Positions 19,582 through 52,816 are shown, counted from the first letter of the stretch. The stretch: DNA of 64,000 nt from an uncultured Gammaproteobacteria bacterium (GCA_947258655.1 CAMYJD010000012.1:13323-77322), one strand, 5' to 3'. The notes: a model not told the origin generated them from the letters alone. Numbers and translations are program-made.

Positions 19582-19606
19582 AAATTACAGCGAAGCGCAC
19601 AGTGCG

Positions 19607-23653: not shown

Positions 23654-25327
23654 TTATTTCGCCGATTCTATTCTTTTCGTTATAACCCACTGTTGTGTTA
23701 TTGACAGCGCATTATTGACGACCCAGTACAATACCAGGCCCGACGGGAAAAACAGGAAGAATATGGTAAACACAAAAGGCAGGGCCATCATGACCTTGGC
23801 CTGAACCGGATCCAGTGGTGCAGGATTCAGTTTTTGCTGGATGAACATGGTCGCGCCCATCAGTATCGGTAATACATAAAACGGGTCCTTCGCCGACAGG
23901 TCTGTAATCCACAACATAAACGGTGCCTGGCGCAATTCCACTGCCTCCAGCAATACCCAGTACAGCGCAATGAAAACCGGTATCTGCACGAGGATAGGCA
24001 AGCATCCACCGAGTGGATTGATCTTCTCCTTTTTATATAAATCCATCAATGCCTTGTTCATACCCTGGCGGTCATCGCCATAGCGCTCTTTCAGGGCCTG
24101 CATTCGTGGCTGCATCTTGCGCATATTGGCCATCGATTTATAACTGGTCTCGGACAGCTTGTAGAATGCCAGCTTGATGATCAAGGTCAGAAAGATGATG
24201 GCCCAACCCCAGTTACCTAACAGACTATGCAATGCACTCAGTAACCAGAACAGTGGCTTGGCGATAACTGTCAGGAAACCATAATCCGCAGTCAGTTCAA
24301 GACCGGTAGCAATATCTTCCAGGACATTCTGGTCTTTGGGACCGGTGTACAACTGACTGCTGAATTGCTTGCTCTGTCCAGTTCCTATTGTCTCGGCCGG
24401 AGATATCATACCGAGGTAGTAACGGTAGTTCAGATAATTACTGTAAAAGCTGTTAGTGTCTTGTGCATTTGGTGCCCAGGCAGCCAGAAAGTAATGCTGC
24501 ATCATCCCGATCCAGCCACCCTGGACGTTACTACGATTCAGTTTACTTTCCTGCATCTGGCTGAAATCAATCTTTTCATAGAGCTCTTCAGGGGTATAGA
24601 TAACACCGCCCATGTAGGTCTGCATCATGAACATGGAGGTTGATTCCTCACCATAATGCGTGCGCTGTAATTGGCGATAGAAACTACCCTGCCAGTCAGA
24701 CGCTGACCCGTTTTCAACCTTGACCTTCATATCGATCAGATGGCTGGAGCGCTTGAAGGTATAGGTCTTGGTCACCTTGACACCTGTGTCATCACTCCAG
24801 GTCAGGACAACATCTAATGTGTCCTCACCTTCGCCCAGCCTGTACTCGGTCTTGTCGGCGTTGAAGCGCGTCTCATGTGTCGGCCCGTTACCTTTAAGCA
24901 TGGAAAAACCGGATTGCGCTACATACAGTTTTGCACCCTCGTCAGTCATTAACTGAATGGCCTGTTCGGGTTTATCCTGTTCTAGTGGATACTTGCGCAA
25001 GAACACTTCGCGTATATCGCCACCCAGTGTATCCAGCGTGACCTGTAGATAATCGGTAATAACCTGTATGCGCTGATCTGATTCGAGCTTGTTGGCTTCA
25101 CCACTGATCGTTGGGCCGCTAGGCTTTACCGGTTGGGCGGCTGCCGGAACATCACCGGGTACAGCCGGTGCCGGTACTGCGCTGGCGGATGTTGCTGCGC
25201 TGTCACTGCCGCTACTGACCGTAGTTGGTACAGTGCTACTGACGCCGTAGTCACGTTGCCACTCCTGGTATAGCAACATGCCAAGAAAGACGAGCGCGAT
25301 AATGATAAAAAGCCGTTGATTTTCCAT
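23654..25327 (-). CDS. yidC: membrane protein insertase YidC
   Basis: 557 aa; conserved position after yidD-rnpA-rpmH. Confidence 0.95.
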   Translation of the reverse strand: MENQRLFIIIALVFLGMLLYQEWQRDYGVSSTVPTTVSSGSDSAATSASAVPAPAVPGDVPAAAQPVKPSGPTISGEANKLESDQRIQVITDYLQVTLDTLGGDIREVFLRKYPLEQDKPEQAIQLMTDEGAKLYVAQSGFSMLKGNGPTHETRFNADKTEYRLGEGEDTLDVVLTWSDDTGVKVTKTYTFKRSSHLIDMKVKVENGSASDWQGSFYRQLQRTHYGEESTSMFMMQTYMGGVIYTPEELYEKIDFSQMQESKLNRSNVQGGWIGMMQHYFLAAWAPNAQDTNSFYSNYLNYRYYLGMISPAETIGTGQSKQFSSQLYTGPKDQNVLEDIATGLELTADYGFLTVIAKPLFWLLSALHSLLGNWGWAIIFLTLIIKLAFYKLSETSYKSMANMRKMQPRMQALKERYGDDRQGMNKALMDLYKKEKINPLGGCLPILVQIPVFIALYWVLLEAVELRQAPFMLWITDLSAKDPFYVLPILMGATMFIQQKLNPAPLDPVQAKVMMALPFVFTIFFLFFPSGLVLYWVVNNALSITQQWVITKRIESAK

Positions 25328-25335
25328 TGTTATAA

Positions 25336-25566
25336 TTACTTCTGTTGTTTGTTAACTTCCGGGACGGGATCAACGCCACCGGGTGACCACGGATGGCAAC
25401 GCAGTATCCGCCGTAATGCCAGCCAGCTTCCATATACAGCACCGTGCCTATGAATCGCGGTATGCGCATAACACGAGCATGAGGGATAAAATCGGCAATG
25501 ATTACCCAGAAGCGGGCTTATTATATATTGGTATGAACGAATAATGAAAATCAGGATTGTGCGCAT
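25336..25566 (-). CDS. yidD: membrane protein insertion efficiency factor YidD
   Basis: 76 aa, [18 protein letters not shown]. Confidence 0.9.
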
Positions 25567-25922
25567 TTTTTTACTAGCCTGTCCCAGTGTTTTGACAGAG
25601 AGCGATGTATCTCATTATTACTCCTGTCCTGCAAGCCTTTTTTCGCCAGTACGACGATATCGAGCCCCGGTAACATGGCCTGGCGGGCGCGAAAACTTTC
25701 ACGCACGAGGCGTTTAATTCGGTTACGTTGCACGGCACTGGCAATACTCTTCTTCGCTATCGCCAGCCCCAGCCTTGCGTTTTCGCTGTGATTCACACAT
25801 GCCAGAATAGTAAATAACTGATCACTGGATCTGAGTGGATCTGCAAATACCTGCTGGTATTCATTGCGGTTCAACAAGCGCAGCGAGCGCGGAAAACGAC
25901 AGCTGGGATTTTGCTCATTCAA
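25551..25922 (-). CDS. rnpA: ribonuclease P protein component
   Basis: 123 aa basic protein in canonical position. Confidence 0.9.
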
Positions 25923-26063
25923 AAAAAGCGCCTTAAAAATTGTGGATTTAAGGTCTGGACCGATCTGATGGGGCAGATAACAGATGTTGGCTTGAAACTC
26001 TCGCAGTAGGAATGTCTACTCGCTTAAACGGGCATGCATGTGACCCGCTACAGTAGCTATATA

Positions 26064-26198
26064 TTAAGGAGTCAGACGCTTGCGACCCTTGGCACGCCTG
26101 GCGTTAATTACAGCACGGCCGCCGCTTGTACTCATACGTGCACGAAAACCATGGTTGCGTGCCCTTTTTAATACACTGGGTTGGAATGTTCTTTTCAT
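26064..26198 (-). CDS. rpmH: 50S ribosomal protein L34
   Basis: rc translation [44 protein letters not shown]; absent from ORF track (below length cutoff). Confidence 0.9.
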
Positions 26199-26297
26199 AT
26201 CGCCTTACCTGATTAACGCGCCGGAACAAGCCGGAATTAATGAACCGGCAATCCTACTGTGTCATGCAGGGCATGTCAACCGAAAAAATAAATCACT

Positions 26298-26321
26298 TTA
26301 TCCACTCTGCATTGTGGATAA
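26298..26321. promoter_or_regulatory. pair of DnaA boxes in rpmH-dnaA spacer (TTATCCACT, TGTGGATAA)
   Basis: read directly from sequence; dnaA autoregulatory region and possible origin. Confidence 0.6.
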
Positions 26322-26393
26322 CTTTGAAAAATAGAGTTAGAATCCGAGGATAACGAAGTTATTAACAACCTCTCCAACAAGAAGGGAGCCCTC

Positions 26394-27719
26394 TTGTCCA
26401 GTCTTTGGAATCAGTGTCTTCAATACCTTGAAGATGAATTACCGCAGAACCAGTTTAATACCTGGATCAGGCCGCTGCACGCGATCCAGAATGGCGAATC
26501 GCTGCAACTGCTGGCTCCAAACCAGTTTGTACTAGACCAGGTTAAGGATAATTTTCTCGACTCTATTCAGCAATCCCTGCAAAACCTGAGCAGCAACCAA
26601 CCCCCGAGCCTGAAATTGCAGGTGGGCAGCGTCAATCAGGCTGCTCAACCGACCGCTGTACAGACGGATAACGACACGGGCAAGCAGGCGATTTCACACA
26701 AGAGCAATATTAACCCAGATTTCACGTTTGCATCCTTTGTTGAGGGCAAGTCCAACCAATTGGCGCGGGCGGCCTCGGTACAGGTCGCCGAGAATCCGGG
26801 TAAGGCCTATAACCCGTTGTTTATCTATGGCGGCGTCGGTCTTGGTAAGACCCATTTGATGCACGCCGTCGGCAACATGATGATGGCCAAGAATCCGCAG
26901 GCGCGGGTTGTATATCTACATTCAGAGCGTTTTGTTGCCGATATGGTCAAGGCCTTGCAACATAACTCGATCAATGAATTCAAACGCTATTACCGCTCCG
27001 TCGATGCGTTGCTGATCGATGATATCCAGTTCTTTGCTAAAAAAGAGCGCTCCCAGGAAGAGTTTTTTCATACCTTTAACTCATTACTGGAAGGCCATCA
27101 GCAGGTTATCCTGACCTGTGACCGTTACCCGAAGGAGGTCAATGGCCTCGAAGAACGACTGAAATCTCGCTTCGGCTGGGGTTTGACGGTATCGGTGGAA
27201 CCACCGGAACTGGAAACACGCGTGGCCATCCTGCTGGGCAAGGCCAAACAATTGCATGCGGATTTACCCGATGAGGTCGCATTTTTCATTGCCAAACGCC
27301 TGCGCTCCAACATCCGTGAACTCGAAGGTGCATTAAAGCGCGTTATAGCTAATGCCCATTTTACCAACCAGTCGATTACGCTCGATTTCGCCAAAGAGGC
27401 ACTGAGGGACCTGCTGTCGCTGCAGGATCGCCTGGTCAGTATTGAAAACATTCAGAAAACCGTTGCTGAGTATTACAAAATACGCGTGCATGATTTATTA
27501 TCGTCCCGGCGCACGCGTTCTATAACGCGACCGCGGCAAATCGCGATGAGCCTGGCAAAGGAATTGACCAGCCATAGTCTGCCCGAAATCGGCGATGCCT
27601 TTGGCGGGCGCGATCATACGACCGTGTTGCATGCCTGTCGCAAGGTCAAGGAGCTACGCGAAACAGAAATCAGGATCAGGGAAGATTATTTAAGCCTGTT
27701 AAGAATATTGAGCACATAA
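26394..27719 (+). CDS. dnaA: chromosomal replication initiator DnaA
   Basis: 441 aa, TTG start with GAAGGGAG RBS; Walker [11 protein letters not shown]. Confidence 0.95.
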
Positions 27720-27940
27720 TGTGGATAACTTGTTTATATAAATTAGAATTAAAGATATTCAATTGTTATCCACAGTTTAGTAACAAATAGTAAAGCGGTT
27801 TTACATTCGTTATACATAATTAAAACCGATATAAGATATTGTTTTATATGATAAAAATAGTTTTATTAACAAAAGGCGTGTTTGTTAATAATTACAATAA
27901 CAAAGATATATTTATTTATATTAATAAATAGGGAAATCGG
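27720..27940. promoter_or_regulatory. AT-rich dnaA-dnaN spacer with inverted DnaA boxes (TGTGGATAA near 27719, TTATCCACA near 27765) - candidate oriC/DUE
   Basis: boxes seen in sequence; about 220 bp of very low GC between them and dnaN. Confidence 0.5.
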
Positions 27941-29041
27941 ATGAAGTTCAAGATCAAACGCGAAACGTTACTTAAACCACTTCAGTTTGTCATCGGTGTT
28001 GTAGAACGCAGGCAGACCTTACCGGTCCTATCAAATCTGCTGTTACAAGCAGATACAGGACGTATATCCTTAACGGCAACTGATCTTGAAGTGGAACTGG
28101 TGGCTAATTTTGATCTTGAGGTTAACGATGGCGGTGAGATCACAATACCAGCACGTAAATTTCTCGATATCTGCCGAGCTTTGCCCGAGGATTCGGAGTT
28201 GAATGTTGGTTTCCAGAAGGAGCGCGTACAGGTCAGATCGGGTAAAAGTCGATTCACGCTAGCCACGTTACCGGCAGCGGAATTCCCGCTGGTTGAAGAC
28301 ATCAAGGTCCAGAAGGAATTCAGTATTCCACAACGCGCACTGAAAAAGTTGATTGAACGCACCCATTTTGCAATGGCTCAACAGGATGTACGATATTATC
28401 TGAATGGTCTTTTATTCGAGATCAAGGCGGGTCAATTAAGAACCGTTGCTACGGATGGACATAGGCTGGCGATATCCGAGGTTGATGCAGATATTTCCGG
28501 CGATGATCATCATCAGGTTATCGTTCCCAGAAAAGGGATACAGGAACTGGCCCGATTACTTGAAGATTCGGATGATATGGCCCTGATACAGCTCGGGTCG
28601 AATCATATACGTATTCAGCTGCCGGAACTGCGTTTTACATCAAAACTGATCGATGGCAAGTTTCCTGACTATAACAAGGTCCTGCCCAAGGCCAGTAATA
28701 AATTCGTTAATGCTGAACGTGAAACATTGAAGCAAGCCCTGGTCCGAACATCGATCCTATCGAATGAAAAATACCGAGGTGTGAGGTTGAATCTCGAGGA
28801 ACAGCGTTTGTCGATACAGGCGCATAACCCGGAACAGGAAGAGGCAGAAGAAGAACTTGAAATCGATTACCAGGGTGATCCGATCGAGATCGGTTTTAAC
28901 GTCAATTACATACTCGACGCACTGAATGGTATTCCGGAAGACAAGGTTACGATTTCACTGAGTGATTCCAACAGTAGTTGCCTTATCGAGCCTGCCGAGT
29001 CAAAAGACTGCCGATATGTCGTTATGCCGATGCGGCTGTAA
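27941..29041 (+). CDS. dnaN: DNA polymerase III beta sliding clamp
   Basis: 366 aa, MKFKIKRETLLKPLQ. Confidence 0.95.
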   Translation: MKFKIKRETLLKPLQFVIGVVERRQTLPVLSNLLLQADTGRISLTATDLEVELVANFDLEVNDGGEITIPARKFLDICRALPEDSELNVGFQKERVQVRSGKSRFTLATLPAAEFPLVEDIKVQKEFSIPQRALKKLIERTHFAMAQQDVRYYLNGLLFEIKAGQLRTVATDGHRLAISEVDADISGDDHHQVIVPRKGIQELARLLEDSDDMALIQLGSNHIRIQLPELRFTSKLIDGKFPDYNKVLPKASNKFVNAERETLKQALVRTSILSNEKYRGVRLNLEEQRLSIQAHNPEQEEAEEELEIDYQGDPIEIGFNVNYILDALNGIPEDKVTISLSDSNSSCLIEPAESKDCRYVVMPMRL

Positions 29042-29077
29042 ACAGACCAGCGTAATCTCGTTTACAGAAACAGCTGA

Positions 29078-32648
<3,571 letters not shown>

Positions 32649-32717
32649 GCACAATCAGTGCCAATGCCCAGAACCTTGTTGATAAACCGCTGCGACAGTT
32701 TGACCTGGTAACAGAAC

Positions 32718-32990
32718 ATGGATACATCCGCCCTATCGAATGTTTATATCGCCGCGGCGGCGGCGATTATCTTTTACATAATCGCTATCGTCATGGCGAT
32801 GATGACTTCCCGACAGATCAGCACTAGCGATGCACAAAAACCTTCGTTGATGCAATGCCTGTTGCGTGGAGAATCGCTGACCCCGAAGGGCATGAACTAC
32901 CGTATTTTCGTTTTTATAGCGCTGATGTTCGCGATCATGAACACATTGGCTACAGCGTTTATTTTCATTGCATCACAAACGCAAGCCTGA
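32718..32990 (+). CDS. small 2-TM membrane protein
   Basis: 90 aa, two hydrophobic helices. Confidence 0.35.
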   Translation: MDTSALSNVYIAAAAAIIFYIIAIVMAMMTSRQISTSDAQKPSLMQCLLRGESLTPKGMNYRIFVFIALMFAIMNTLATAFIFIASQTQA

Positions 32991-33008
32991 AGCATTTAAC
33001 GACGTGTA

Positions 33009-34250
33009 TTGATGACGCGCTTACTTGTTATCGGTTATGTCTGGCCGGAACCCGGCTCATCCGCAGCCGGGAACCGGATGATGCAATTATTGCAGCTGTT
33101 CGTGCAACAGCGATGGCAAATTATTTTCGCCAGCCCCGCCGCTGCCAGTGAGCATATTGCAGACATCGAATCATTGGGTATCAGGCGGCAACGGATCGAA
33201 CTGAACAACAGCAGCTTCGATACCTTTATCAGTGAATATCAGCCTGACATCGTCGTGTTTGATCGCTTCATGATGGAAGAGCAATTTGGCTGGCGTGTAG
33301 AACAACATTGCCCACAGGCTTTGCGGATTCTCGAATCAGTAGACCTGCATTGCCTGCGCCATGCACGCCAGCAGGCGAACAGGCAACAGCGCGAACTTTG
33401 CCAACAGGATTATTACAGCGATATCGCCAAGCGCGAGATAGCCAGTATCTACCGCTGTGATCTTAGCCTGATTATTTCCACGGCGGAAATGGACCTGCTA
33501 CAGCAAGTCTTTCGCGTTGAGCGCGAATTACTCCATTATGTACCATTCATGCTTGATCCCGTCACTGCCGCAAGCGCCGCTGACGAGCTACGCGGATTTA
33601 AACAACGCGAGCATTTTATTTTTATCGGTAACTTCCACCACGCACCGAACTGGGATGCCGTGCGCTATCTGAAACAGGATATCTGGCCCGGGATCCGCAA
33701 GCAATTGCCCCAGGCCCAACTACAGATATATGGATCCTATACACCACAAAAGGCCAGGCAACTGCATAACAGTGCAGAAGGATTTATTATTGCGGGTCGC
33801 GCAAAAGATGCCGGACAAGTTATGCAACAGGCCAGGGTATGCCTGGCGCCATTGCGCTTCGGTGCCGGTCTGAAGGGCAAGCTGATCGATGCAATGCAAT
33901 CCGGAACGCCCAGTGTCACGAGCACTATCGGTGCCGAAGGCATGCATGCAGACATGCCATGGAACGGCGCGATCGAGGACGATGCTGATGCATTCGTGGA
34001 TGTGGCAGTGCAGCTATATCAACAGGAAGATGACTGGCAGACGGCTCAACAAAACGGCTTTAAAATCATCAACCGCCTTTATAATAAAATTGAATTGGGA
34101 CAGGAACTGCTGCAAATCATCGCAACTATCGGTAAAGACCTGGAACAACACCGACTGAATAATTTTACTGGTGCCATGCTCGTACATCATACGATGCAGA
34201 GTTCAAAGTATATGTCGCGATGGATTGAAGCTAAAAACAGATTGAAATGA
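33009..34250 (+). CDS. glycosyltransferase family 1 (GT4-type)
   Basis: 413 aa; C-terminal LAPLRFGAGLKGKLIDAMQSGTPSV. Confidence 0.7.
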   Translation: MMTRLLVIGYVWPEPGSSAAGNRMMQLLQLFVQQRWQIIFASPAAASEHIADIESLGIRRQRIELNNSSFDTFISEYQPDIVVFDRFMMEEQFGWRVEQHCPQALRILESVDLHCLRHARQQANRQQRELCQQDYYSDIAKREIASIYRCDLSLIISTAEMDLLQQVFRVERELLHYVPFMLDPVTAASAADELRGFKQREHFIFIGNFHHAPNWDAVRYLKQDIWPGIRKQLPQAQLQIYGSYTPQKARQLHNSAEGFIIAGRAKDAGQVMQQARVCLAPLRFGAGLKGKLIDAMQSGTPSVTSTIGAEGMHADMPWNGAIEDDADAFVDVAVQLYQQEDDWQTAQQNGFKIINRLYNKIELGQELLQIIATIGKDLEQHRLNNFTGAMLVHHTMQSSKYMSRWIEAKNRLK

Positions 34251-34345
34251 TTTAATGCCTCACAGATAGTGAGTATGAAGATCTCTTTTATAGGATTTTA
34301 TTCTGAAAACAAAGAGCTCTGCTATTAATTTTCAATTATTACACC

Positions 34346-34732
34346 ATGGTAGAGCGGTTTAACTCAAAGATTGAGGATACTGTGATTACACTGAAGTCCA
34401 TAATTGATTGGTTTAAAGGGAATAAATATGAATTATTGCCAATAGACTTTGATGTGAAAAGGCTCGATGATGATAATTCATTCCAGATAGAGATACACAA
34501 TGACGAGAAAACCGAAATGAAATTTGTTGTTATTGTGTTGGAAAAATATTTAGGATTATCGAAAAAAGATGCAATTAATATAATGTTAGAGATCCATACG
34601 AAGGGAAAAACTATAATTACGGGCTATGATAAAAATACAGCCAACAGGCTGGTGAGTCATATTGAATCTATGGCAAAAATAAATAGTTTCCCTCTTGTGT
34701 GTAATGTACAAAAGACATATCAAGATATTTAA
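34346..34732 (+). CDS. ClpS-like adaptor-domain protein with about 45-aa N-terminal extension
   Basis: EIHNDEKTEMKFVVIVLEKYLGLSKKDAINIMLEIHTKGKTIITGY..FPLVCNVQK parallels the ClpS core; low-GC islet. Confidence 0.55.
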   Translation: MVERFNSKIEDTVITLKSIIDWFKGNKYELLPIDFDVKRLDDDNSFQIEIHNDEKTEMKFVVIVLEKYLGLSKKDAINIMLEIHTKGKTIITGYDKNTANRLVSHIESMAKINSFPLVCNVQKTYQDI

Positions 34733-35019
34733 GCTGTCAAATTGTTGATCACCCGGAAACCAGAATCACGATATTGAAGTTAGTTTCTGACTATTTAAAA
34801 TGGCTGCTTGATCCGGAACATGCTTCCGACAACGACAGCAGTAGTCAAAATCAGGACAGACTTAGGCAAGTTATGTATTTTGGATAAATATTGAGATTTT
34901 TTCCAGGCCGCTGACAGATATTAGTCAAGGCAGAATACTAAAGTTCTGTGCTGCCTTGCCGCCATACTATGTGGGCATATATTAAGCATATGTTAAATAC
35001 AAGCTATTTGGTGTGAATT

Positions 35020-35898
35020 ATGTATCATGGCACAAGACAATGTAGCAGATTTTTATCAATTATCGCGGTGTTACTATTGTCTGGCCTGTCAACACAGAGC
35101 GCTTTTTCATCAAATGATAGCATCAAGATGGCTATTATTTCGCTGGCGCCACCTGCCAAAATTTATAGACAATGGCAGGAGTTTGCAGATTACCTGTCTA
35201 GTAAAACAGGCCGGGAAGTAAAAATTATTGTTCCACGAGGCTTCAAGAAAATAAAATCGGCGGTTGAGGATAAGACAGTCGATATTTTTTATGTCAATTC
35301 GCATATATTCTACAAGTTAACAGAGGCACAAAAGGCCGAACCACTTGCACAGATGATGAATCTGGATGGCAGCATATACAGTAATAGTGTTATGTTTGTG
35401 CGCAAGGACAGCGGAATTGATTCCTTACAACAACTCAAGGGTGAAAAAATTGCGTTTGTTGCTCCGATGGGTGCGGGTGGTTATCTTGCACCAAGGGCAG
35501 CATTCTATGACGCCGGAATACAAACAAAAGTAGATACTGAAGAGAAATTCACCAAAAACCTGACTTCATCTGTCCATAAGGTATTACTGGGAGATGTCAA
35601 AGCGGGCACAATGTGTGGCCTGAACTACAAATTAATGAGTGAACGCATCAAGACGGGCGACCTGAAAATCATTGCATCGAGTGCTGACTATCCTGAAAAT
35701 GTATTTGGTATTCGTGCGGATTTGCCAGCAGCATTAAAAAAGCAGATCTCTGAAGTCATGATTGGTATGGATAAGGATATAAACGGCAGAAAGATTCTTG
35801 ACGGAATGAAGGGCATGAAAATAAAGAAATTCGTAAAATATGATCCTGAAACAGAACACACTACCAGAGCATTGCGTAAAAGCGCAGATTTCAAATAA
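35020..35898 (+). CDS. PhnD/SsuA-family periplasmic substrate-binding protein (paralogue 2)
   Basis: 292 aa, signal peptide; VRKDSGIDSLQQLKGEKIAF. Confidence 0.7.
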   Translation: MYHGTRQCSRFLSIIAVLLLSGLSTQSAFSSNDSIKMAIISLAPPAKIYRQWQEFADYLSSKTGREVKIIVPRGFKKIKSAVEDKTVDIFYVNSHIFYKLTEAQKAEPLAQMMNLDGSIYSNSVMFVRKDSGIDSLQQLKGEKIAFVAPMGAGGYLAPRAAFYDAGIQTKVDTEEKFTKNLTSSVHKVLLGDVKAGTMCGLNYKLMSERIKTGDLKIIASSADYPENVFGIRADLPAALKKQISEVMIGMDKDINGRKILDGMKGMKIKKFVKYDPETEHTTRALRKSADFK

Positions 35899-36025
35899 AT
35901 AAAGTTTGTAGACATCGAGATCCTGTGGGTTTGAATGAATTAATTATTATACTTGATATACGCAGTAGCGGTATTGTCACGTAAATTTATAATTTTCACT
36001 GCTAACTCATATTAAAGACTTTTCA

Positions 36026-38254
36026 ATGAGACTTAGCCTGAATACACGTATGGTCATCAGCCTGTTAGCACTCGTGCTAACGGGCTTTATTGTGCTTGCC
36101 ATTGTATTACTGACTAATGCGAAATCGCGTATCGATCAGTTTCTGGAAACCCAGGCCGTCTACCAGGTACAAACCCTGGCTCAGGCCAGCCTCGATGGCC
36201 TGGTATCAGAAGATTATGAATTACTTGAGAGTTGGGTAAACTCATCGATCCCTTCCGATAATTATGCCTATGCAGCCCTGGTAAGATCCAATGGTCAGGT
36301 TATGTCGCATACTGATCCTAATTATATAGGGAAAAATATTACAACAATAACAGGTGTTAGTAAGCATGTGTCGCGCATATCGGAATATCAACAGCGACCG
36401 GTCAAGGAAATAATTAGCCCGGCAAAGATTGGTGGACAAGTTCTGGCAAATGCCCATGTGGCCTATTACATGGACGCTGGAGAATTTATTAACAGAGATA
36501 CAGCCGTTGAGATACTGATTATTCTTACGGTCATTTTTACTGTTATTCTGATCGCTGGTTATATGCTTATGCGAGGTATAACCGGACCGATAGAAATATT
36601 ACGCCAGATTATTTCAAAGTCGTCACTTGATAAATCAGTCAACATTGACCAGAAAATAATTAATCGTGCGGATGAAGTCGGTGATCTTGCACGTGCGTTC
36701 GAGGATACTTCAGAAAGATTGGTCCATTAACCAATAAGGCGATAGTCGAGACATCCAATGATGGCATTATTGTTATTAATGAAAAAGGGATTGTTGAATC
36801 AATTAACTCTGCCGCAGAAAATATTTTTGGTTATACGCCTGCAGAAGTAGTTGGGCATAATGTATCCATGCTGATGCCGGAACCCTATGCACATGAACAT
36901 GACGGTTATATAGAAAAATATCATCAAACCGGTAAAGCATCGATTATAGGTAAAAGAAGAGAGCTTGCAGCTAAACGCAAGGACGGAAAAATTATACCTA
37001 TTGAACTGGGTATCGGTGAAATAGTATATGAAGGAAAGGCGCGTTATGCAGGGACTGTGCGTGATATTACAGATCGTAAGGAGTATGAGAATGCCCTTGT
37101 TGAAGCGAGGGATGCATCAGATAGAGGAAACCGTACAAAAACACGATTCCTGGCCACAATGAGTCATGAATTACGAACCCCCATGAACGCAATTATGGGT
37201 GCAATGGGGCTGTTGAAAGATGTGGATATACCAGAAGAGGAGAAGAATTTCCTGGTATGTGCTGAAAAAGCTGCGGGTGAGTTGCTTGAGCTAATAGATA
37301 ATGTCCTTGACTTTACCGATCTTGAATCTGGTAGTGTAGCGCTGGATTTAAGTGGTTTTAATCTACTGGAAATGCTGGAGACGATTCATACGAAATATAA
37401 CGATGTATTGGCCGATATGCCGGTCAGTCTGGATCTGGAAATTGCAGACGGCATACCCGATTTATTAATCGGTGATTTTCGACGTATTAATAATGTCCTG
37501 GAAAAACTCGTTCAAAATGCCATCAAATTCACTTCTGAAGGCAGCATTGTATTACGTGTCATAACGGAAGGCATGTCGAATAACAAGATAAATCTGAAAT
37601 TCGAGGTATGTGATACAGGCATAGGAATAGACGAGCAGGATCAACAAAGCATATTCGACAGTTTTACCCAGGCAGATGATTCATACACCAGACGCTTCGG
37701 TGGAACAGGTATCGGGCTTAGTATATGCAAGGCGTTGGTTCAGGTAATGGGGGGCGAGATTGGTGTTGAATCCGAAGCGGAAAAAGGCAGCAGGTTCTGG
37801 TTTACTCTTTCACTGGATGTAATAAATATGCAAGCGCCTGCAAATACAAAAGCAGCGGAGCCAGTTGTCGAAATAGACAGGCCAGGTCAAAGTGCCCGAC
37901 TGCTGGTTGTCGAGGATGACATCAGTAATCAACGCATAGTTCAGGCCATGCTGAACAGGCTGGGATTTTATTCGGATATCGCCGAAAATGGCAGAGTTGC
38001 GCTGCAAAAACTTGAACAGTCTGACTATGATCTCATATTAATGGATTGCCAAATGCCGGTCATGGATGGATTGGAAGCGACCAGGAAAATCAGACAATTA
38101 GAAACAAACAGGGAGCATATACCAATCATTGCTGTCACTGCGAACTCGATGGAGGGTGACAAGGAAAAATGCCTTGAGGCCGGTATGGATGACTATGTCA
38201 GTAAACCCATTGATATGCAATGTCAGTAAACCCATTGATATGCAATTACTCAAA
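36026..38254 (+). pseudogene. hybrid sensor kinase (TM-loop-TM-HAMP-PAS-HisKA-HATPase-REC) disrupted by a frameshift near 36720-36735 and a 25-bp tandem duplication at its 3' end
   Basis: ORFs 36026-36730 and 36868-38229 are continuous in protein space after a -1 shift. The PAS segment TNKAIVETSNDGIIVINEKG.. begins in the other frame. Removing the duplicated 25-mer restores ..KPIDMQLLKTAIVDWLK*. Confidence 0.65.
38197..38246. repeat. perfect 25-bp tandem duplication GTCAGTAAACCCATTGATATGCAAT x2
   Basis: read directly from sequence. Confidence 0.85.
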
Positions 38255-38327
38255 ACCGCTATAGTAGACTGGTTAAAATAAACACTAGCTGCTATGCAAT
38301 CAAACCATTATTGTGACTAAAACGAAA

Positions 38328-38384
38328 AAAGCGGACATTCACAGCAACGGATCTGACAGGCCGGAGTCGACCCAAAGCAGGCGG
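38328..38384. repeat. 57-nt intergenic repeat element, copy B
   Basis: perfect 16-mer AAAGCGGACATTCACA plus GGCCGGAGTCGACCC core; see copy A. Confidence 0.5.
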
Positions 38385-38410
38385 ATAAGCATAGCGCCAT
38401 CCCCAATGTC

Positions 38411-38430
38411 ATTCCCGCGCAGGCGGGAAT
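38411..38430. repeat. hairpin ATTCCCGC-GCAG-GCGGGAAT (8-bp stem)
   Basis: perfect inverted repeat 27 nt after repeat copy B; resembles ATTCCC-N8-GGGAAT type small repeats. Confidence 0.4.
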
Positions 38431-38861
38431 CCAGAAAGGACTAAGAATGGAAAGGATACCATACGCAATTATTTAGCGACAACGATCGTCGTTGCCTGGG
38501 GAAGGAAATCTAAAAGAGTTTTTACTCTGACCCCAAATGTTCCAAATGTTCCCAGGTTTTTGCGCCGCGGCGATCTGTTAACGTGTATAGATCAGCTATA
38601 AAGAATATTGATCTGGATGCGAGACTCAACAGATTGTTTCACTGCGACCGCTTTGTATCCCCAAACGCATGGCCTGTTAGTTCGCAATGACAATGCTTAT
38701 GAAAGGACGCTTCAGACCGGTTTCTGCCTGTTAAACAAATATTCCTGAAAGACCGCTATAGGGTGTATGAGACCTTCATCTCCAGACAATATTGTCTGGA
38801 CAAGTGTTAATCTATTTTGCAATGTGTCAGGTTGGGTCTGAGCTACTACAGCTAATTGTTA

Positions 38862-40547
38862 TTAGCCTACCTTTAAAATCGCAATTTCATGCGCATCCAA
38901 TGGAACATGTACAAATGCCCTTCCGGTTGGTGTTTGCTCAACGGTATAGGTCTGATCAGGTTTGAGCAGGTTGCGCAAACGTTGAGCCGGGCCGCTCAGA
39001 TAGTGATCCACCGTGATGTAGTCCTGTCGGTTGGTGTCCTGTAAATTCAGTAACACGATCACTTCATCGGTATCGAGAATTCGTGACCAGGCCAGCGTGC
39101 ATTGACCACTGGCCGGAAAATAGAAATGTTCGGCGTCTACGGAAATCTCGCGGAAATATTGACGACCATAACGCAGTGCAGGTTGTTGTGCGCGTATACT
39201 GCATATAGCGCTATTGAAAAATTGCATGCCGGTCGTATTGAATGCACCCCATTGTCCGCCAAACATGCATTCGCGAACATAACTGTCATTGTCGCCACCA
39301 CCGTTAAATCCCTGCTCGGTGCCGTAATAAATACAGGGTATGCCCTGACTGGTCAGTAAATAGCCTATACCCAGTATCGCCTGTTGCGGATAGGGATTGT
39401 TATGCAGGAAACGCCGATACGGGTGTGCCATCTGGTCATGGTTATCGATAAACGTGACAAAATAGCGCCCGGCTTCACCATGATCTGCATACTGGTGACG
39501 CAGGTGTTCATAACGTCGGCGTAAAACTTCGGGACTGTTAAATCCCTTGATGACATCCTCGAGCACGAAATACAGCGGGAAATCCAGCGCCGCATCGAGC
39601 GATGGAAAACGTTCATTGGTATTTTCGATGCGACTGTTGCGACCGAGATATTTCTGGATCGTAGCATCGTTATCGACGATCTCGCCAAACATGAAGAAAT
39701 TATGCTTGCCATAGCGCTGCGCATATTCGCGCATCGCATTACAGAATATGGCCACGGATGAACTTTCCATATGCTTGACCGTATCGATACGAAAACCGTC
39801 AATATCGGCACTGACTATCCAGGATTTATAGGCCTTGATCAGGGTGTCGAGTACCCTGGGCTGGTTTATATCGAGTTCCTTGAGGCTGAAAAAATCGCCG
39901 TCCTGTGCTTCACGCTCATCATACCAGTTGCGGATTTCGCCCATGCGTTTGAAGGTTTCCGGGTCCTGCAGTTCTTCGGGCCAGATGCCGTCGACACGTT
40001 GCAGGCCCGGGGTCGGGTCCTGCTCACGCCAGAAACCAAACGGGTAACGTTGTCCCTGATGATAATAATAGGGATGTCCACCAGCATAGGCAAAGACATC
40101 GCCACTGTGGTTGAAGATAATGTCCTGGATCACATACATGCCACGTTCATGGGCTTCATGGGTCAGTTCCTGCAGATCGGCCAGATTACCGAAGCGCGGA
40201 TCGATATCGAGAAAATCCTGTACCCCATAGCCATGATAACTGTCATCCTTGTCGAGTCGGTTCTTGAAAATCGGGCTCAACCAGATGGTCGTGCAGCCGA
40301 GTTCGTGTAGGTAATCGAGACGCCGCGTGATGCCCTTGATCGTGCCACCCTGGAAACGTTTGCCTTCAACGGCGTTCCTGCCATTACCATTGCTGTGGAT
40401 GTTGTAGGGTGGATGGTCCAGGTTGTCGTCAAAACGATCGACGAGTAAAAAATAGATGACCTGATCGCGCCAGTCCAGCGGAGACGGATGGAGTGTGTGG
40501 CGTGGTTGAAAATCCAGTTCGGTAACGGAATGCGGTCTGGTCGTCAT
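38862..40547 (-). CDS. alpha-amylase family glycoside hydrolase (GH13)
   Basis: DQVIYFLLVDRFDD, GFRIDTVKHM catalytic-region motifs; start at MTTRPHS with AGGAG RBS. Confidence 0.85.
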   Translation of the reverse strand: MTTRPHSVTELDFQPRHTLHPSPLDWRDQVIYFLLVDRFDDNLDHPPYNIHSNGNGRNAVEGKRFQGGTIKGITRRLDYLHELGCTTIWLSPIFKNRLDKDDSYHGYGVQDFLDIDPRFGNLADLQELTHEAHERGMYVIQDIIFNHSGDVFAYAGGHPYYYHQGQRYPFGFWREQDPTPGLQRVDGIWPEELQDPETFKRMGEIRNWYDEREAQDGDFFSLKELDINQPRVLDTLIKAYKSWIVSADIDGFRIDTVKHMESSSVAIFCNAMREYAQRYGKHNFFMFGEIVDNDATIQKYLGRNSRIENTNERFPSLDAALDFPLYFVLEDVIKGFNSPEVLRRRYEHLRHQYADHGEAGRYFVTFIDNHDQMAHPYRRFLHNNPYPQQAILGIGYLLTSQGIPCIYYGTEQGFNGGGDNDSYVRECMFGGQWGAFNTTGMQFFNSAICSIRAQQPALRYGRQYFREISVDAEHFYFPASGQCTLAWSRILDTDEVIVLLNLQDTNRQDYITVDHYLSGPAQRLRNLLKPDQTYTVEQTPTGRAFVHVPLDAHEIAILKVG

Positions 40548-40818
40548 GAAGGCGCTCCTATATCCATGCATGCAATGAAGGGTTCTGCTGACAAGCATAG
40601 ATCAAAAACGCTCTAATTCAACGGCCATCAACATATGCGCGTGAGTTGCAGGAATTAAGGTGGCAGATGATAAGTACAAATGGATTGTAGTTAGGTATAA
40701 TTATTAAAAACCCTATAACTGTTATACCTTTCCGTGATCAAGTGTCAAAACAGACATAGCGCTTAGATGACGGGGCTGTAATAATGCGTACCAATTTCTG
40801 AACAGAGTAAAATGAATC

Positions 40819-41589
40819 ATGTTAATAGTTATATCGCCGGCAAAAAAACTCGACTATGAGAGTGAACTGAAAGTAAAGACCTATACCGTTCCTGACTACC
40901 TGGATGACTCGCAGCTATTGATCAATCGCATGCGTGACTTCTCGGCCCTGGATATTTCAGAACTGATGCACGTCAGCAGCAAGATTGCCGAATTGAATTT
41001 TGACCGCTATGAGGTGTGGACACCCGAGTTTACGCCGGACAATGCCAGGCAGGCCATTTTTGCCTTCAAGGGCGATGTCTACACGGGTCTCGATGCCGAT
41101 ACACTGAAAAAAGCCGATCTTGATTTTGCCCAAAAGCATCTGCGCATCCTGTCCGGTCTGTATGGATTGTTGAGACCAATGGATTTGATGCAGGCCTATC
41201 GCCTGGAGATGGGGACCAAACTGGAAAATGTACGTGGCAAGAATCTGTATGAATTCTGGGGTATGAAGATTACCGATGGCCTTAATGCACAGTTGAAAAA
41301 GATTAAATCCACGACACTGGTGAACCTTGCTTCCAACGAGTATTTCAAATCAGTAAAGGCGAAGGAAATAAATGGCGACATCATCACACCGTCTTTCAAG
41401 GAATACAAGAACGGTGATTACAAGATGATCGGTATCTATGCTAAAAAAGCACGCGGTCTGTTGAGTCGCTATATCATCCAGAACCGCTTATCCGATGTGG
41501 AAGACATCAAGGCCTTTGATGAGGATGGCTATAAGCTCAACAAAAAATTGTCGAAAGGCAACAACCTCGTATTTACGCGCAGGCAATAA
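40819..41589 (+). CDS. yaaA: peroxide stress protein YaaA (UPF0246)
   Basis: MLIVISPAKKLDY.. near-colinear with E. coli YaaA. Confidence 0.93.
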   Translation: MLIVISPAKKLDYESELKVKTYTVPDYLDDSQLLINRMRDFSALDISELMHVSSKIAELNFDRYEVWTPEFTPDNARQAIFAFKGDVYTGLDADTLKKADLDFAQKHLRILSGLYGLLRPMDLMQAYRLEMGTKLENVRGKNLYEFWGMKITDGLNAQLKKIKSTTLVNLASNEYFKSVKAKEINGDIITPSFKEYKNGDYKMIGIYAKKARGLLSRYIIQNRLSDVEDIKAFDEDGYKLNKKLSKGNNLVFTRRQ

Positions 41590-41803
41590 GCTGAGTAGTG
41601 TAGATTGTATGTTCCAATAGGTATTATCAGCCTGGTGAATGTACATTACTGAATGTTTCCTGCGAGAAGATTGGTCTTCAATAGCAGGGTTATACAACAA
41701 TGGACTGCAGTCATACCTGTAGCAGACAGTAATCTATTTGTTTGCGGATCTGATTACGAGCTGTTTACTGAGTGCCTGTTAATCATTTGTGTACTGGGTA
41801 TCT

Positions 41804-42850
41804 TCAATAGAGGTATACCGCACCAGCAGCAGTGGCTGCATTATCTCCCTGACCGGGCGTAGTGTTGTTCACTCCAGTCGCTGCACTGTCTTCAAATTGT
41901 ACACTGACAGCAAGCGTGTCGCCGTCACGACTCAATGCAGGGATACCAAAGGAATCATCCGCGTCCGTATTGGAAGCCTTCACGTAGGCCTGTTGTGTCC
42001 AGGTCGAAACGGATCGGGTAAATACATAAACGCCACCTGCACTACTTGCAGAGTTGTCTACCTGGCCGGGTGAGGTGTTATTGATCCCAGTCGCCGCACT
42101 GTCTTCACTCATTGCGCCCACCGCCAGCGTATTACCATCACCGCTCAATACAGGAAGACTAAAGGAATCACCAGCACCTGTGTTGGAAGCCTTCACGTAG
42201 GCCTGTTGTGTCCAGGTTGTGTCTGATCGCGTGTACACATAAACAGCACCTGCATCGAGGGCTGAATTATCACCCTGACCCGGTACGGTGTTGTTCACGC
42301 CGGTCGCCGCACTGTCTTCAAAATATGCCCCCACAGCCAGCGTATTGCCGTCTCCACTCAATGTAACCGAAATACCAAAGTTATCGTTAGCTTCAGTATT
42401 GGAGGCCTTTATATAGCCTGTAGCTGCGATACTGTCTATTAGTGCAAGGGTCTGGTTGTTTGAACCAACACATGTGGTCGCCGCTGCATCACAGGCTTCC
42501 ACAATATATTGTGCGGAAACCCAGTCTGTTTTGTGTACAGGTATGACCAGGCTATGACTTGTAGCAGTGATATTGCTGGCGCTTGGGATTACCGTGAAAC
42601 CCGATGCGCCATCGGGATTCTCTAGAATTCTATAGTGGTCCGCACCTGCAACCGCAGGCCATGTAAACCTGATTTGCTTCAAGTCGAATGTCAGTGTCGG
42701 CACGGGCGCACTCAGGCCCGTTGCCGGGGTACTGCTTCCGCCAGAGCAGCCTGAAAGTAGAGATGACAGCACCATGAAGAAAAAAAGGCAAATCAAATAA
42801 AAGATATGTGTCCTATGGTCAGAAATACAGAGCTTGCTGTGTATAGTCAT
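41804..42850 (-). CDS. lipoprotein with three tandem FG-GAP/beta-propeller-like repeats
   Basis: LLSGCSGG lipobox. Three copies of about 70 aa YxKASNT..D.FG..LSGDGNTLAVGA..EDSAATGxNNTxPGQxDN..AGxVYV. The same repeats are visible as about 220-bp DNA repeats (for example GCCTTCACGTAGGCCTGTTGTGTCCAGGT twice). Confidence 0.6.
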   Translation of the reverse strand: MTIHSKLCISDHRTHIFYLICLFFFMVLSSLLSGCSGGSSTPATGLSAPVPTLTFDLKQIRFTWPAVAGADHYRILENPDGASGFTVIPSASNITATSHSLVIPVHKTDWVSAQYIVEACDAAATTCVGSNNQTLALIDSIAATGYIKASNTEANDNFGISVTLSGDGNTLAVGAYFEDSAATGVNNTVPGQGDNSALDAGAVYVYTRSDTTWTQQAYVKASNTGAGDSFSLPVLSGDGNTLAVGAMSEDSAATGINNTSPGQVDNSASSAGGVYVFTRSVSTWTQQAYVKASNTDADDSFGIPALSRDGDTLAVSVQFEDSAATGVNNTTPGQGDNAATAAGAVYLY

Positions 42851-43391
42851 AATCGTCCCAATAATTAAATGTTATATCCTGAAATTCCGTTTACAAGGGC
42901 ACATAAGAAAACGGTAATATTAGCGCTATTTTTTCGGTGATAATTTGAGCATATATAGTTTGGTGTAGTCAACGCTGCAATCACTTTCCTAAACAGTTTC
43001 TTGAAAGCTTTATACTATCAAATTACTCATAACACTTTAGTTTCTCGATAACTGAAAATAGCATTCAACACAATGTGATGATGTCTTTCACAGTGCTTTG
43101 TATAACAGTGTGAATGAATTACAGGTCTATCATGAAATAACATGATTCGATATGAAGCAATGCAATCAAGTTTTAAGAATATTGAATTGTATTTTAGCAG
43201 AGCGTGTTTATACTCATACTTACACAATCAAGTCCTAATTAATAAAGATTGAATTTATGTAAGTTCACGACACGATAATGATGCACTCGTTGACATGCAA
43301 GTACTCGAATATATTTGCGCCCTTTTGATTTATTAATCTGCCGGAAAAATATTCCTGATCCAATTACGTAAATGTTGATCACAAAATACTT

Positions 43392-44516
43392 ATGCTAACA
43401 AAACAGAATATTATCACGGTAATGATTTTAGCCGTTGTATTGGCCAGTAATTCGCAAGCACGCAGCTTCAGGGGTGAAGGCAGTGATCTGATGATGGGTA
43501 TTGGCGCCAATGCGATAGCAAAGAGCGGTGCGGTGGCTGCCAGCTCCAGGGACATCTATTCCATGTACTGGAATCCCGCCGGGCTTGCCGAGATGTCACA
43601 GAACCAGGTCACGCTGTCCGGTCAGCTGGATGCGCAACTCGCCGGGATCAATTTTGCAGCAATGGCGTTTAATAATGAATGGTTGCGCTTTGGGCGCTAT
43701 CAGTTCGCGATAGGGTTGTCACGCCAGACACGCCTGCATGTCAAGGCCAGCGGTGCCTATGGGCCTGATGATTTTGAGAGTATCTTCCTGCGCTACGCCC
43801 TGCCCGGCCTGCCTGATGATTTTGATGGGGATATCGAATCGAAGACACGTGATACGCGCATCACTGTTGCGCTCAGCCCAACAGATGCGCGCTGGAGCCT
43901 CGGTATCAATATCGGGCAAATACATTGCAAAACCAGTTTCTGCGGTGTGTTTGCAACGGATCCGGGAAATTATACCGTTGCATCGACCGATGCCAGGGCC
44001 ACAACCGTAGGCATCGGCGGCAAATATCAGGTCAGTGATAATCTCACATTGGGCCTGAATATCAAGGACATCGATACCCGCCTGGATGTAGAGACGATTG
44101 TGACCGACCAGAACGGCACAACAATCGAGCGCTTCACGACCGGCTTCCCGCGCAGCATCACCGTCGCAGCATTATGGAAACATGGATTTGATCGGGACAT
44201 AACACTTGAATATGAAAATGTCAGTGGTAATTACGGTAGCTCCAGTGTCGATTTTCAGATTATCAGAGGGGGCTATGAATTGCGCCAGGATCAATGGTCG
44301 TACCGGGCCGGTATCCTGATACCGCTGGTGATTGAAAGTGATTCAGTTCAGGACATCAAGAGTGATCTGCCTGCACCGTTTCTGCTCAGCGTGGGTCTGG
44401 GCTGGCAATCAAATTATAGCTCAATCGATTTCGCTCTCTATCCGCACCCATTAACCAGTTACTCCAACAGCAAGATCAGCTTGTCAGCCGATCTGTCTAT
44501 AACGTACAGATTCTGA
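43392..44516 (+). CDS. outer-membrane beta-barrel protein (FadL/OmpP1-like transport barrel?)
   Basis: 374 aa, signal peptide, alternating amphipathic strands, C-terminal ..SITYRF with terminal Phe. Confidence 0.55.
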   Translation: MLTKQNIITVMILAVVLASNSQARSFRGEGSDLMMGIGANAIAKSGAVAASSRDIYSMYWNPAGLAEMSQNQVTLSGQLDAQLAGINFAAMAFNNEWLRFGRYQFAIGLSRQTRLHVKASGAYGPDDFESIFLRYALPGLPDDFDGDIESKTRDTRITVALSPTDARWSLGINIGQIHCKTSFCGVFATDPGNYTVASTDARATTVGIGGKYQVSDNLTLGLNIKDIDTRLDVETIVTDQNGTTIERFTTGFPRSITVAALWKHGFDRDITLEYENVSGNYGSSSVDFQIIRGGYELRQDQWSYRAGILIPLVIESDSVQDIKSDLPAPFLLSVGLGWQSNYSSIDFALYPHPLTSYSNSKISLSADLSITYRF

Positions 44517-44778
44517 TATGTAGTGGCCCTTGAGTTTATTCAAAATAGCACGATATAGCGGGAACTGCTTTTTGTGGATAGTGTTGTGTAAACGCGATCT
44601 GTTGCTCGGATGAAAAGGCGCAGAAGTCGCTGTATTTATGTCAGCGCTGCCCGGGATAGTGTAGCAGGATTTGAATTGATGTCAGAATGAAATAAAAAAC
44701 CAGAACAGGGAAATAATGATGGCCCTGTTGAGAAAAGGCTGCTGGCCCGGGAAGAATCCCGGGCACTGCAGTTGCTAT

Positions 44779-45810
44779 TTATGCAGCACTGTCTGCATCA
44801 TCACGGAGATGATAATCGATAGCAAGTTGCACTTCATTACGTGAACCGAGGATAACCGGAACACGCTGATGCAGATCGCTGGGCTGGATATCCATGATAC
44901 GTTCACGGCCCGTGCTGCTCATACCGCCGGCCTGTTCGATGATCATAGACATCGGATTGGCTTCGTACATCAGGCGCAGTTTACCGTCCAGTCCCTTGGC
45001 CTTCATCTTGCTGTCGACAGGATACATAAAGACACCGCCACGGGTCAGGATGCGGTGTACTTCTGCTACCATGGATGCAATCCAGCGCATGTTGAAATCG
45101 CGTCCACGGGGGCCTTCGCTACCTTCCAGACATTCTTCTATATAACGTTTCAGTGGTGTTTCCCAGAAACGCATATTCGATGCATTGACGGCAAACTCCT
45201 GGGTATCTTCCGGAATAGTCATGGAACCGTGGGTCAGGATGAATTCACCGATGTTCTGGTCAAGGGTAAAGCCATTCACGCCGTTGCCCGTCGTCAGTAC
45301 CATCATCGTCGAGGGCCCATACAGTGCGTAACCCGCACATACCTGCTCGCTACCCGGCTGCAGGAAATCCTCGGCAGTCGGCTCTTCAACACCATCCGGG
45401 CAGCGCAGGATGGAAAAGATAGTACCCACAGAAACATTAACGTCGATGTTGGAAGAACCATCCAGTGGATCGAAAACGAGCAGGTATTTGCCACGTGGGT
45501 ATTGTGTAGGGATCTGGTACACATCCTCCATTTCCTCGGAGGCCATGCCGGCGACATGCCCGGACCATTCATTGGATTTCAGAAAGATCTCGTTACTGAT
45601 GATATCCAGTTTTTTCTGTGTTTCACCCTGGATGTTTTCACTCTCGGCACTACCCAGTACATCGATAAGTGCGCCGTGATTCACGGCATTTGAGATGACC
45701 TTGCACGCGGTAACGACGTCGTTCAACAGGGATGTAAAATCACCTGTTGCGCTAGCAATATGCCGCTGTTCTTCTATTATAAATTGGGTAATGGTAGTTC
45801 CATTATGCAT
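44779..45810 (-). CDS. fbp: fructose-1,6-bisphosphatase class 1
   Basis: [22 protein letters not shown] motif; start at MHNGTT. Confidence 0.9.
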
Positions 45811-46074
45811 GATTGTGCCGCTCCACTGTCGCAAAAACTTGTAAGTAATTGATATATCACTTATATCAACACTCTGTGAAAAAGGATATTAGTATATGAT
45901 AATACACGGATATACCTGCGCAGGCAACCACGGATGTATAATATTATTTAACATAATACGTCGTTACGCTGGCTGGCTATACATGTCACGACGGGTATTA
46001 ATAGCAATATGGATGGTCAGATGCTGCTTCGAGCCCGCAATCCTTGATATGGAGGTCCAGGTTGTGCAGCGTGT

Positions 46075-46785
46075 TTAACGCCCGCCAATCTCGGTCATCT
46101 TGTGCTCGATCCAGGACTCGACTTCGTTGAGAATGTCACTGGCACTCCTGCCCCGGGTTTCAATCGGCTCGCCTATAGCGACCGTAATGGTACCGGGGTG
46201 TTTGAAGAACTGCCCTTTTGGCCAGAAATAACCGGCATTATGGGCAATCGGGATAACCCGGTGGCCGCTCTTTGCGGCCAGTAATGCTCCACCGGGGCGG
46301 TAGTTGGTTTGTTCTCCGGCCATGGTGCGTGTGCCCTCCGGAAAAATCATAACGCTAATGCCTGAATCGAGACGTTTAATACCCTGCTCGATCAGTTGTT
46401 TCAGCGCCTGTTTACCCAGCTTGCGATTAATGGCAATCGGATTGAGCATGGCAACGCCCCAGCCAAAGATAGGAATCCATAACAGTTCCCGTTTCAGTAC
46501 CCACACCATCGGTGGCATAAACAGTTGGTAGGTTATGGTCTCCCAGGTGGATTGATGCTTGCTCATAAATATGACGGATTCGTCGGGGATGTTATCCATG
46601 CCCTGTACTGTATAGGAGAGTCCGCAGGTAACCTTTAGCCACCACAGATTGAACAATGGCCAGCCCTTGGAAATGATATAACGCACGCGAAACGGGAAAA
46701 TGAAGGAAATAGTCAATATTGATGTGACAACAATCGTGGACAGATAAAATCCGAGCCAGAATAAAACCGTTCTCAAGGTGGGCAT
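46075..46785 (-). CDS. plsC: 1-acyl-sn-glycerol-3-phosphate acyltransferase
   Basis: H(x4)D-type motif SKHQSTWE, FPEGTR; conserved after gmhB. Confidence 0.85.
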   Translation of the reverse strand: MPTLRTVLFWLGFYLSTIVVTSILTISFIFPFRVRYIISKGWPLFNLWWLKVTCGLSYTVQGMDNIPDESVIFMSKHQSTWETITYQLFMPPMVWVLKRELLWIPIFGWGVAMLNPIAINRKLGKQALKQLIEQGIKRLDSGISVMIFPEGTRTMAGEQTNYRPGGALLAAKSGHRVIPIAHNAGYFWPKGQFFKHPGTITVAIGEPIETRGRSASDILNEVESWIEHKMTEIGGR

Positions 46786-52814: not shown

Positions 52815-52816
52815 AC

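Follow-up and report, generated by a model that had tools for sequence, protein, structure and literature searches.

The locus lies in the replication-origin neighbourhood of an uncultured gammaproteobacterium, with mnmE, yidC, rnpA, rpmH, dnaA, dnaN, recF and gyrB found in the window (the whole stretch of DNA that was analysed, 64 kb in length). Two open reading frames, both on the plus strand, carry the domains of a membrane hybrid histidine kinase between them. ORF A (36026-36730; 234 aa) encodes a first transmembrane segment, a periplasmic sensor domain, a second transmembrane segment and a HAMP domain. The transmembrane segments (hydrophobic residues 9-30 and 160-182) were judged by eye, and the HAMP domain was matched at residues 181-233 with E=1.5e-4, just under the Pfam cut-off. 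ORF B (36868-38229; 453 aa) encodes a PAS domain, the kinase and a receiver. The initial annotation had placed the HAMP part and the PAS-HisKA-HATPase-REC part in different frames, and this is borne out by the codon phases, which are 2 for ORF A and 1 for ORF B (mod 3). No single continuous ORF from sensor to receiver is present: the frames are split, and the receiver is 11 residues short.

When frame B was followed upstream of ORF B, it was found to be open from ~36700, where it reads ...GPLTNKAIVETSNDGIIVINEKG..., and its coding remainder extends from 36733 to 38221 (plus strand; Pfam and ORF list). The domains were placed on a translation starting at 36715. In this translation, PAS occupies residues 8-118 (~36736-37068; Pfam 1.8e-16), HisKA residues 142-206 (~37138-37332; 2.8e-16), HATPase_c residues 253-367 (~37471-37815; 2.1e-28), and the receiver (Response_reg) residues 397-501 (~37903-38217; 2e-28). 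The PAS fold starts near 36736, which is indeed within the apparent gap between the ORFs, as had been claimed, and which precedes the first start codon of frame B by 132 nt. No ATG, GTG or TTG was found in frame B upstream of 36868, and the ATG at that position falls ~45 residues into the PAS fold.

The two parts were stitched into one protein and used in a whole-database search, from which nine homologues (P0001-P0009) of 732-772 aa were taken, with 43-48% identity and 97-100% query coverage. The homologues fall into three clades and are 47-80% identical to each other. All are uncharacterised metagenomic hybrid kinases, none of them studied experimentally, and one is labelled 'response regulator [Gammaproteobacteria bacterium]'. 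Like the window gene, they show the order transmembrane segment, sensor, transmembrane segment, HAMP, PAS, HisKA, HATPase_c, receiver, with no Hpt domain. In contrast to the window copy, which carries two lesions, each is a single intact ORF with a 13-residue linker between HAMP and PAS and one KPxxxx segment. ORF A aligns collinearly with the N-terminal parts of all nine, with no insertion or deletion.

In the ten-sequence alignment, H380 (SHELRTP), N497, DTGIG, F543/F546 and GGTGIGL stand in invariant columns, as do E629-D630, D673, T704 and K726. The H, N, G1, F and G2 boxes and the receiver Asp, Thr and Lys of a hybrid histidine kinase are all present, with Pfam E-values of 1e-16 to 1e-28. 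Kinase relatives above 48% identity (above 42% for ORF A alone) did not appear in two whole-database protein searches, the source contig aside. A motif scan of genome contigs gave no orthologue; the relatives it returned were 30-44% identical, and the generic receiver motif [IV][LF]MDCQMP dominated. The family is left unnamed, since no NCBIfam equivalog reached its cut-off for the kinase. In a leave-one-out count, unique substitutions in the window lineage were ~1.7 times those of three representative homologues; the window sequence is the outgroup, which confounds this ratio, and the excess therefore says little on the duration of relaxed constraint. At 48% amino-acid identity, saturation of the synonymous sites makes dN/dS unsuitable.

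The first lesion (lesion 1) occupies 36722-36732 on the plus strand, where the window has 11 nt (GTCCATTAACC) and the homologues have 13 codons. When codons were compared with the loci of two homologues (L084 and L085), the 11 nt were found to stand between TTG, in SERL, and AAT, in NKAIV. In 9/9 homologues, 13 residues lie between these two motifs, the alignment consensus being SERLxxSHxELxxSLxxNKAIV. As this length is the same in three clades with only 47-55% identity between them, the linker is of conserved length. The alignment is collinear from end to end but for a gap of 10 columns, which coincides with the frame change and affects no sequence other than that of the window. The TAA that ends ORF A is exposed by this lesion.

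A passage from frame A to frame B demands a deletion of 1 mod 3, and 39-11 = 28 fits; a 25-nt deletion also fits if the ancestral linker had 12 codons. As read from the alignment, lesion 1 is a loss of ~28 nt (possibly 25), or ~9-10 codons, from the HAMP-PAS linker, the size being taken from homologues at only 43-48% identity. A lineage with a shorter linker and a 1-nt deletion would be a conceivable, if strained, alternative to this loss. No homopolymer at the site is longer than AAA. With no homopolymer and ~28 nt missing, the lesion is neither a single-base slip nor a base-calling error. The initial annotation had described an internal frameshift for which a sequencing error was possible. 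The change of frame stands, while a one-base event explicable by sequencing error does not; the caveat itself continues to apply in the form of an assembly error, but not of a base-calling error.

The second lesion (lesion 2) is a tandem duplication near the 3′ end. The first copy of GTCAGTAAACCCATTGATATGCAAT (38197-38221, plus strand) encodes VSKPIDMQ, the start of receiver strand β5, and the second (38222-38246) is a perfect repeat that shifts the frame. The head-to-tail 25-bp duplication described in the initial annotation is thus exact; Tandem Repeats Finder reported 38195-38246 with period 25, 2.1 copies and 100% match. No further copy of the 25-mer was found elsewhere in the 64-kb window on either strand, and no other perfect repeat with a period of at least 20 nt was reported in the window by the same program. 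By our own arithmetic, the chance of a given 25-mer being repeated in tandem is ~4^-25, or ~6e-11 over 64 kb. Because the copies are perfect, the duplication appears to be young.

The duplication starts in the VSKPIDMQ codons, near the receiver's conserved Lys-Pro (K726). Unrepaired, the frame terminates in ...KPIDMQCQ*, with the stop at 38227-38229, two codons past the shift. When one copy was deleted in silico, the frame read ...KPIDMQLLKTAIVDWLK* with the stop at 38279-38281. This repaired C-terminus could be aligned with those of the homologues; it has the invariant L733 and W740 and shares its stop column with 8/9 of them. The earlier claim that the duplication creates a premature stop, and that removal of one copy restores a receiver C-terminus, is therefore upheld by the alignment. 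The original 3′ end (38247-38281, plus strand), encoding LLKTAIVDWLK followed by TAA, is now stranded out of frame. The lost segment LLKTAIVDWLK corresponds, in the CheY-like fold, to receiver helix α5. In the truncated product, Response_reg was matched at profile positions 2-103 of 111 only.

The sequence junctions of the lesions are GTC|CATTAACC and GCAAT|GTCAG. The identity of the two 25-mer copies runs 2 nt (AT) further to the left, giving a layout of arm, spacer, arm, spacer, arm (AT + 23 nt). The microhomology arm is AT, 2 bp long, and the chance expectation for a match of at least 2 bp is 1/16. Tandem duplications also occur in bacteria (bioRxiv 10.64898/2026.02.28.708716), where those whose microhomology is short or absent are a common class of spontaneous mutation (PMC8639346; bioRxiv 10.64898/2026.02.28.708716). 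Like the microhomology-mediated duplications described, that of the window duplicates a short coding segment head to tail and causes a frameshift. The described cases differ in having arms mostly of at least 3 bp (5-8 bp in ssp1 alleles), as against 2 bp in the window.

The broken kinase gene lies in an accessory block of 4,613 bp (34249-38861) that also holds a ClpS-like gene, a binding-protein gene and a 580-bp non-coding tail. The window GyrB is 88-92% identical to proteins of gammaproteobacterial metagenome contigs. In 4/4 relatives compared, a small ORF and a glycosyltransferase gene come after gyrB, and yaaA lies beyond them. Between the last two genes is a slot that is empty in one relative (L081), holds an MCP gene in two others (L082 and L083) and an alpha-amylase-family gene in the fourth (L086); in the window it holds an alpha-amylase-family gene together with the 4.6-kb low-GC block. 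The closest relative is L086 (~80% DNA identity), which is collinear with window positions 25240-34248 and 38862-41591. At the site of the block it has 9 bp, as against 4,613 bp in the window.

The GC content of the block is 40.8% and its GC3 ~0.40, compared with ~0.48-0.50 and 0.51-0.60, respectively, in the flanking core genes; the GC and GC3 of the block are put at ~10-15 points below the flanks. A search of the block ends for an integrase, a transposase, or terminal direct or inverted repeats gave nothing convincing. From its composition and its absence in relatives, the block is probably horizontally acquired DNA. The cassette within it appears dispensable, because the block is missing in the nearest relative. 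No gene for a cognate response regulator is present in the block (34249-38861), which encodes only the ClpS-like protein, the binding protein and the kinase.

Some further features of the block and its surroundings may be noted. The ClpS-like gene (34346-34732), at the left end of the block, has a GC content of 31.5% and encodes 128 aa with an N-terminal extension of ~40 residues; it matched Pfam ClpS with E=1.8e-20 but fell under every NCBIfam ClpS equivalog cut-off. The 580-bp tail contains a perfect palindrome, ATTCCCGCGCAGGCGGGAAT, at 38411-38430 (8-bp stem, 4-nt loop), which occurs once in the window; it may resemble the small REP/dRS3-like repeats of some proteobacteria. Outside the block, a 213-bp tandem repeat (41862-42362; 2.4 copies, 75% identity, Tandem Repeats Finder score 543) lies inside a 348-aa minus-strand ORF (41804-42850). 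This ORF belongs to a second stretch (~41600-46075) that has no counterpart in L083, where an acyltransferase gene follows yaaA within ~800 bp. No Rfam match at gathering thresholds was obtained anywhere in the window, and promoter and terminator scans gave background level only.

Directly upstream of the kinase gene, on the same strand and separated from it by 127 nt, is an intact gene (35020-35898) for a PhnD-like periplasmic solute-binding protein of 292 aa (Pfam Phosphonate-bd, E=1e-56), which also scored above the NCBIfam TIGR01098 subfamily cut-off. Its product is presumed to be the ligand-binding partner of the kinase. The gene for homologue P0001 (in L084) likewise has a PhnD-like gene directly upstream, whose product shares 67% identity with the window binding protein from end to end. 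Because P0001 has this same upstream gene, the binding protein and the hybrid kinase are, judging by gene order and identity, a conserved cassette in which the damage is confined to the kinase. The gene for another homologue, P0003 (L085, 3564-8271), is preceded by that for a 793-aa fatty-acid cis-trans isomerase (CTI) family protein and not by a binding-protein gene; not every member of this kinase family is therefore paired with a binding protein.

The window has three pairs of a binding-protein gene and a HAMP hybrid kinase gene (18715-21916, 35020-38254 and 51792-54733), which are alike in gene order and in general kinase class. The pair at 18715-21916 has a PhnD-like partner and a kinase with Hpt and without PAS, and is intact and conserved in L083. 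The pair at 51792-54733 has an NMT1-like partner and a kinase without PAS, and is also intact. The occurrence of three such pairs in 64 kb suggests that coupling of binding proteins to kinases is frequent in this organism. The two PhnD-like binding proteins of the window are only 25% identical to each other, and no significant similarity was found among the sensor domains of the window's kinase pairs. The initial annotation had called the broken gene one of the kinase paralogues; this applies to class and gene order but not to close kinship. As the gene sits in a low-GC block that is missing in the nearest relative, it more probably belongs to an acquired cassette than stems from a recent duplication.

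AioX is a PhnD-type binding protein. In AioXSR, a sensor-kinase system reliant on a solute-binding protein, that protein is the first component of a signalling pathway (PMC5908839, PMC8050422). Both that system and the window block adjoin a periplasmic binding-protein gene with the gene of a membrane histidine kinase. They differ in that the block has no adjacent response-regulator gene, and the window kinase is a hybrid with PAS and receiver domains. Orthology to AioS or AioX is not indicated by the sequences, and no NCBIfam equivalog reached its cut-off. By analogy with the AioX-AioS pair, the window binding protein may have signalled to the kinase.

In its intact state, the locus would have been a cassette of two genes, one for a membrane hybrid histidine kinase and one for a periplasmic solute-binding protein of the PhnD type. 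Detection of a ligand, by analogy a small anionic one, would fall to the latter or to the kinase's own periplasmic domain, and the signal would pass from HAMP through a helical linker of fixed length to PAS and on to the DHp/CA kinase core. The phosphoryl group would then move from His380 to Asp673, from there to a separately encoded Hpt protein, and finally to a response regulator; the last two would be encoded elsewhere, because none is in the block. Two independent length mutations of the replication-slippage type would have disabled the kinase gene. The deletion of ~28 nt from the linker would end the frame after HAMP, so that PAS, kinase and receiver would have no start codon to use. The 25-bp duplication, with its 2-bp AT microhomology, would cut the receiver just past the conserved Lys-Pro. 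The cassette would then be in the process of loss. The lesions in the sequence, the comparison with homologues and the block with its composition are shown directly, while this signalling route and the presence of the lesions in the organism, and not just in the assembly, are what we infer.

That the gene of the organism is intact, and that one or both lesions are local misassemblies, is a possibility we consider real though rather unlikely. The sequence is known from a single unannotated contig: ORF A (P0241), ORF B (P0244), the binding protein, GyrB, YaaA and DnaN are each represented in the protein collection from one NCBI contig of 88,333 bp only. This sole contig is evidently the window's own source, probably a draft or MAG, and so it provides no independent confirmation of the lesions. 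The lesions also sit in a block that varies between relatives and in GC, where coverage could be lower or mixed. Metagenome assemblers err locally in such strain-variable low-GC blocks, and two clustered errors would not be implausible. A perfect duplication with zero spacer resembles what an untrimmed 25-nt contig overlap would leave, the two lesions are of similar size (~25-28 nt), and a collapsed or over-trimmed join might explain the missing linker segment. Against these points, the loss of 28 nt does not match the duplication of 25 nt if one k value made both, and a de Bruijn graph would hold the junction k-mers GCAAT|GTCAG only if reads carried them. The 64 kb contain no N characters and no second perfect tandem duplication with a period of at least 20 nt. 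At least 15 core genes over ~22-51 kb aligned to the proteins of relatives as single full-length matches in tblastn, with no frame change. With the neighbouring core genes intact and no N, the assembly is not generally prone to frameshifts or other errors.

Slipped-strand switching had been offered in the initial annotation as the alternative to a pseudogene. In a reversible switch of this kind, whether slipped-strand or microhomology-mediated, an unstable 25-bp duplication would turn the kinase off and on in the population. In S. pombe, tandem duplications revert ~100 times faster than they form (PMC8639346), so that a two-copy duplication is lost far oftener, at ~1e-4 per cell, than it arises; the perfect, and hence young, copies of the window would suit such a state. 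The linker deletion is, however, a second and non-revertible lesion, and collapse of the duplication would not restore function because that deletion keeps the gene off. The gene has no homopolymer or multi-copy short repeat tract of the sort found in phase-variable loci, the longest run at the frameshift site being AAA and the only repeat reported by Tandem Repeats Finder being the two-copy 25-mer. The microhomology arm, at 2 bp, is of a length with a 1/16 chance expectation. A version of ORF B without the duplication was not found by exact look-up in a 15-billion-protein collection, in which the locus is represented by a single strain. The claim of slipped-strand switching is therefore dropped, and we hold a reversible switch to be very improbable. 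Equally slim is the chance that the duplication toggles the acquired kinase in the natural population while the linker 'deletion' is an assembly error or a tolerated shorter linker. If that were true, the kinase would be a bacterial, environmental case of a signalling gene switched reversibly by tandem duplication; if both alleles were seen in reads, it would make, for an environmental bacterium, a modest case study in the instability of tandem duplications. Still harder to credit is a gene that remains functional, either by a programmed -1 ribosomal frameshift from ORF A into frame B or as separate sensor and kinase polypeptides. In favour of this reading, frame B is offset by -1 from frame A, with an overlap of ~30 nt. 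Programmed frameshifting was rejected all the same, for no slippery heptamer of the form X XXY YYZ was found in frame A at 36689-36730; the fused product would, moreover, be short by 9-10 residues of a linker that is invariant in length in the homologues (n=9). A functional split gene was likewise rejected, as frame B has no ATG, GTG or TTG until mid-PAS, and the receiver is truncated in either case.

We consider it on the whole probable that an accessory sensor-kinase gene has recently been inactivated, and that the locus is an ordinary pseudogene and not a pair of proteins. Its frame is disrupted by two length changes relative to nine intact homologues. Of the earlier proposal of a pseudogene with two independent lesions, the two disabling length changes and the intactness of the rest are confirmed in the window, and their presence in the organism is presumed. 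The inactivation appears recent, because neither the binding-protein gene nor any catalytic motif has been damaged. That a single gene of 2.2 kb carries two lesions is as expected of one that has turned neutral. In annotation, the locus should be given as a single hybrid-kinase gene, disrupted, plus a binding-protein gene that is intact but orphaned. Beyond annotation the significance is slight; the locus would serve as a clear case in which medium-sized slippage mutations, and not point frameshifts, bring about the loss of a signalling cassette that had been acquired.
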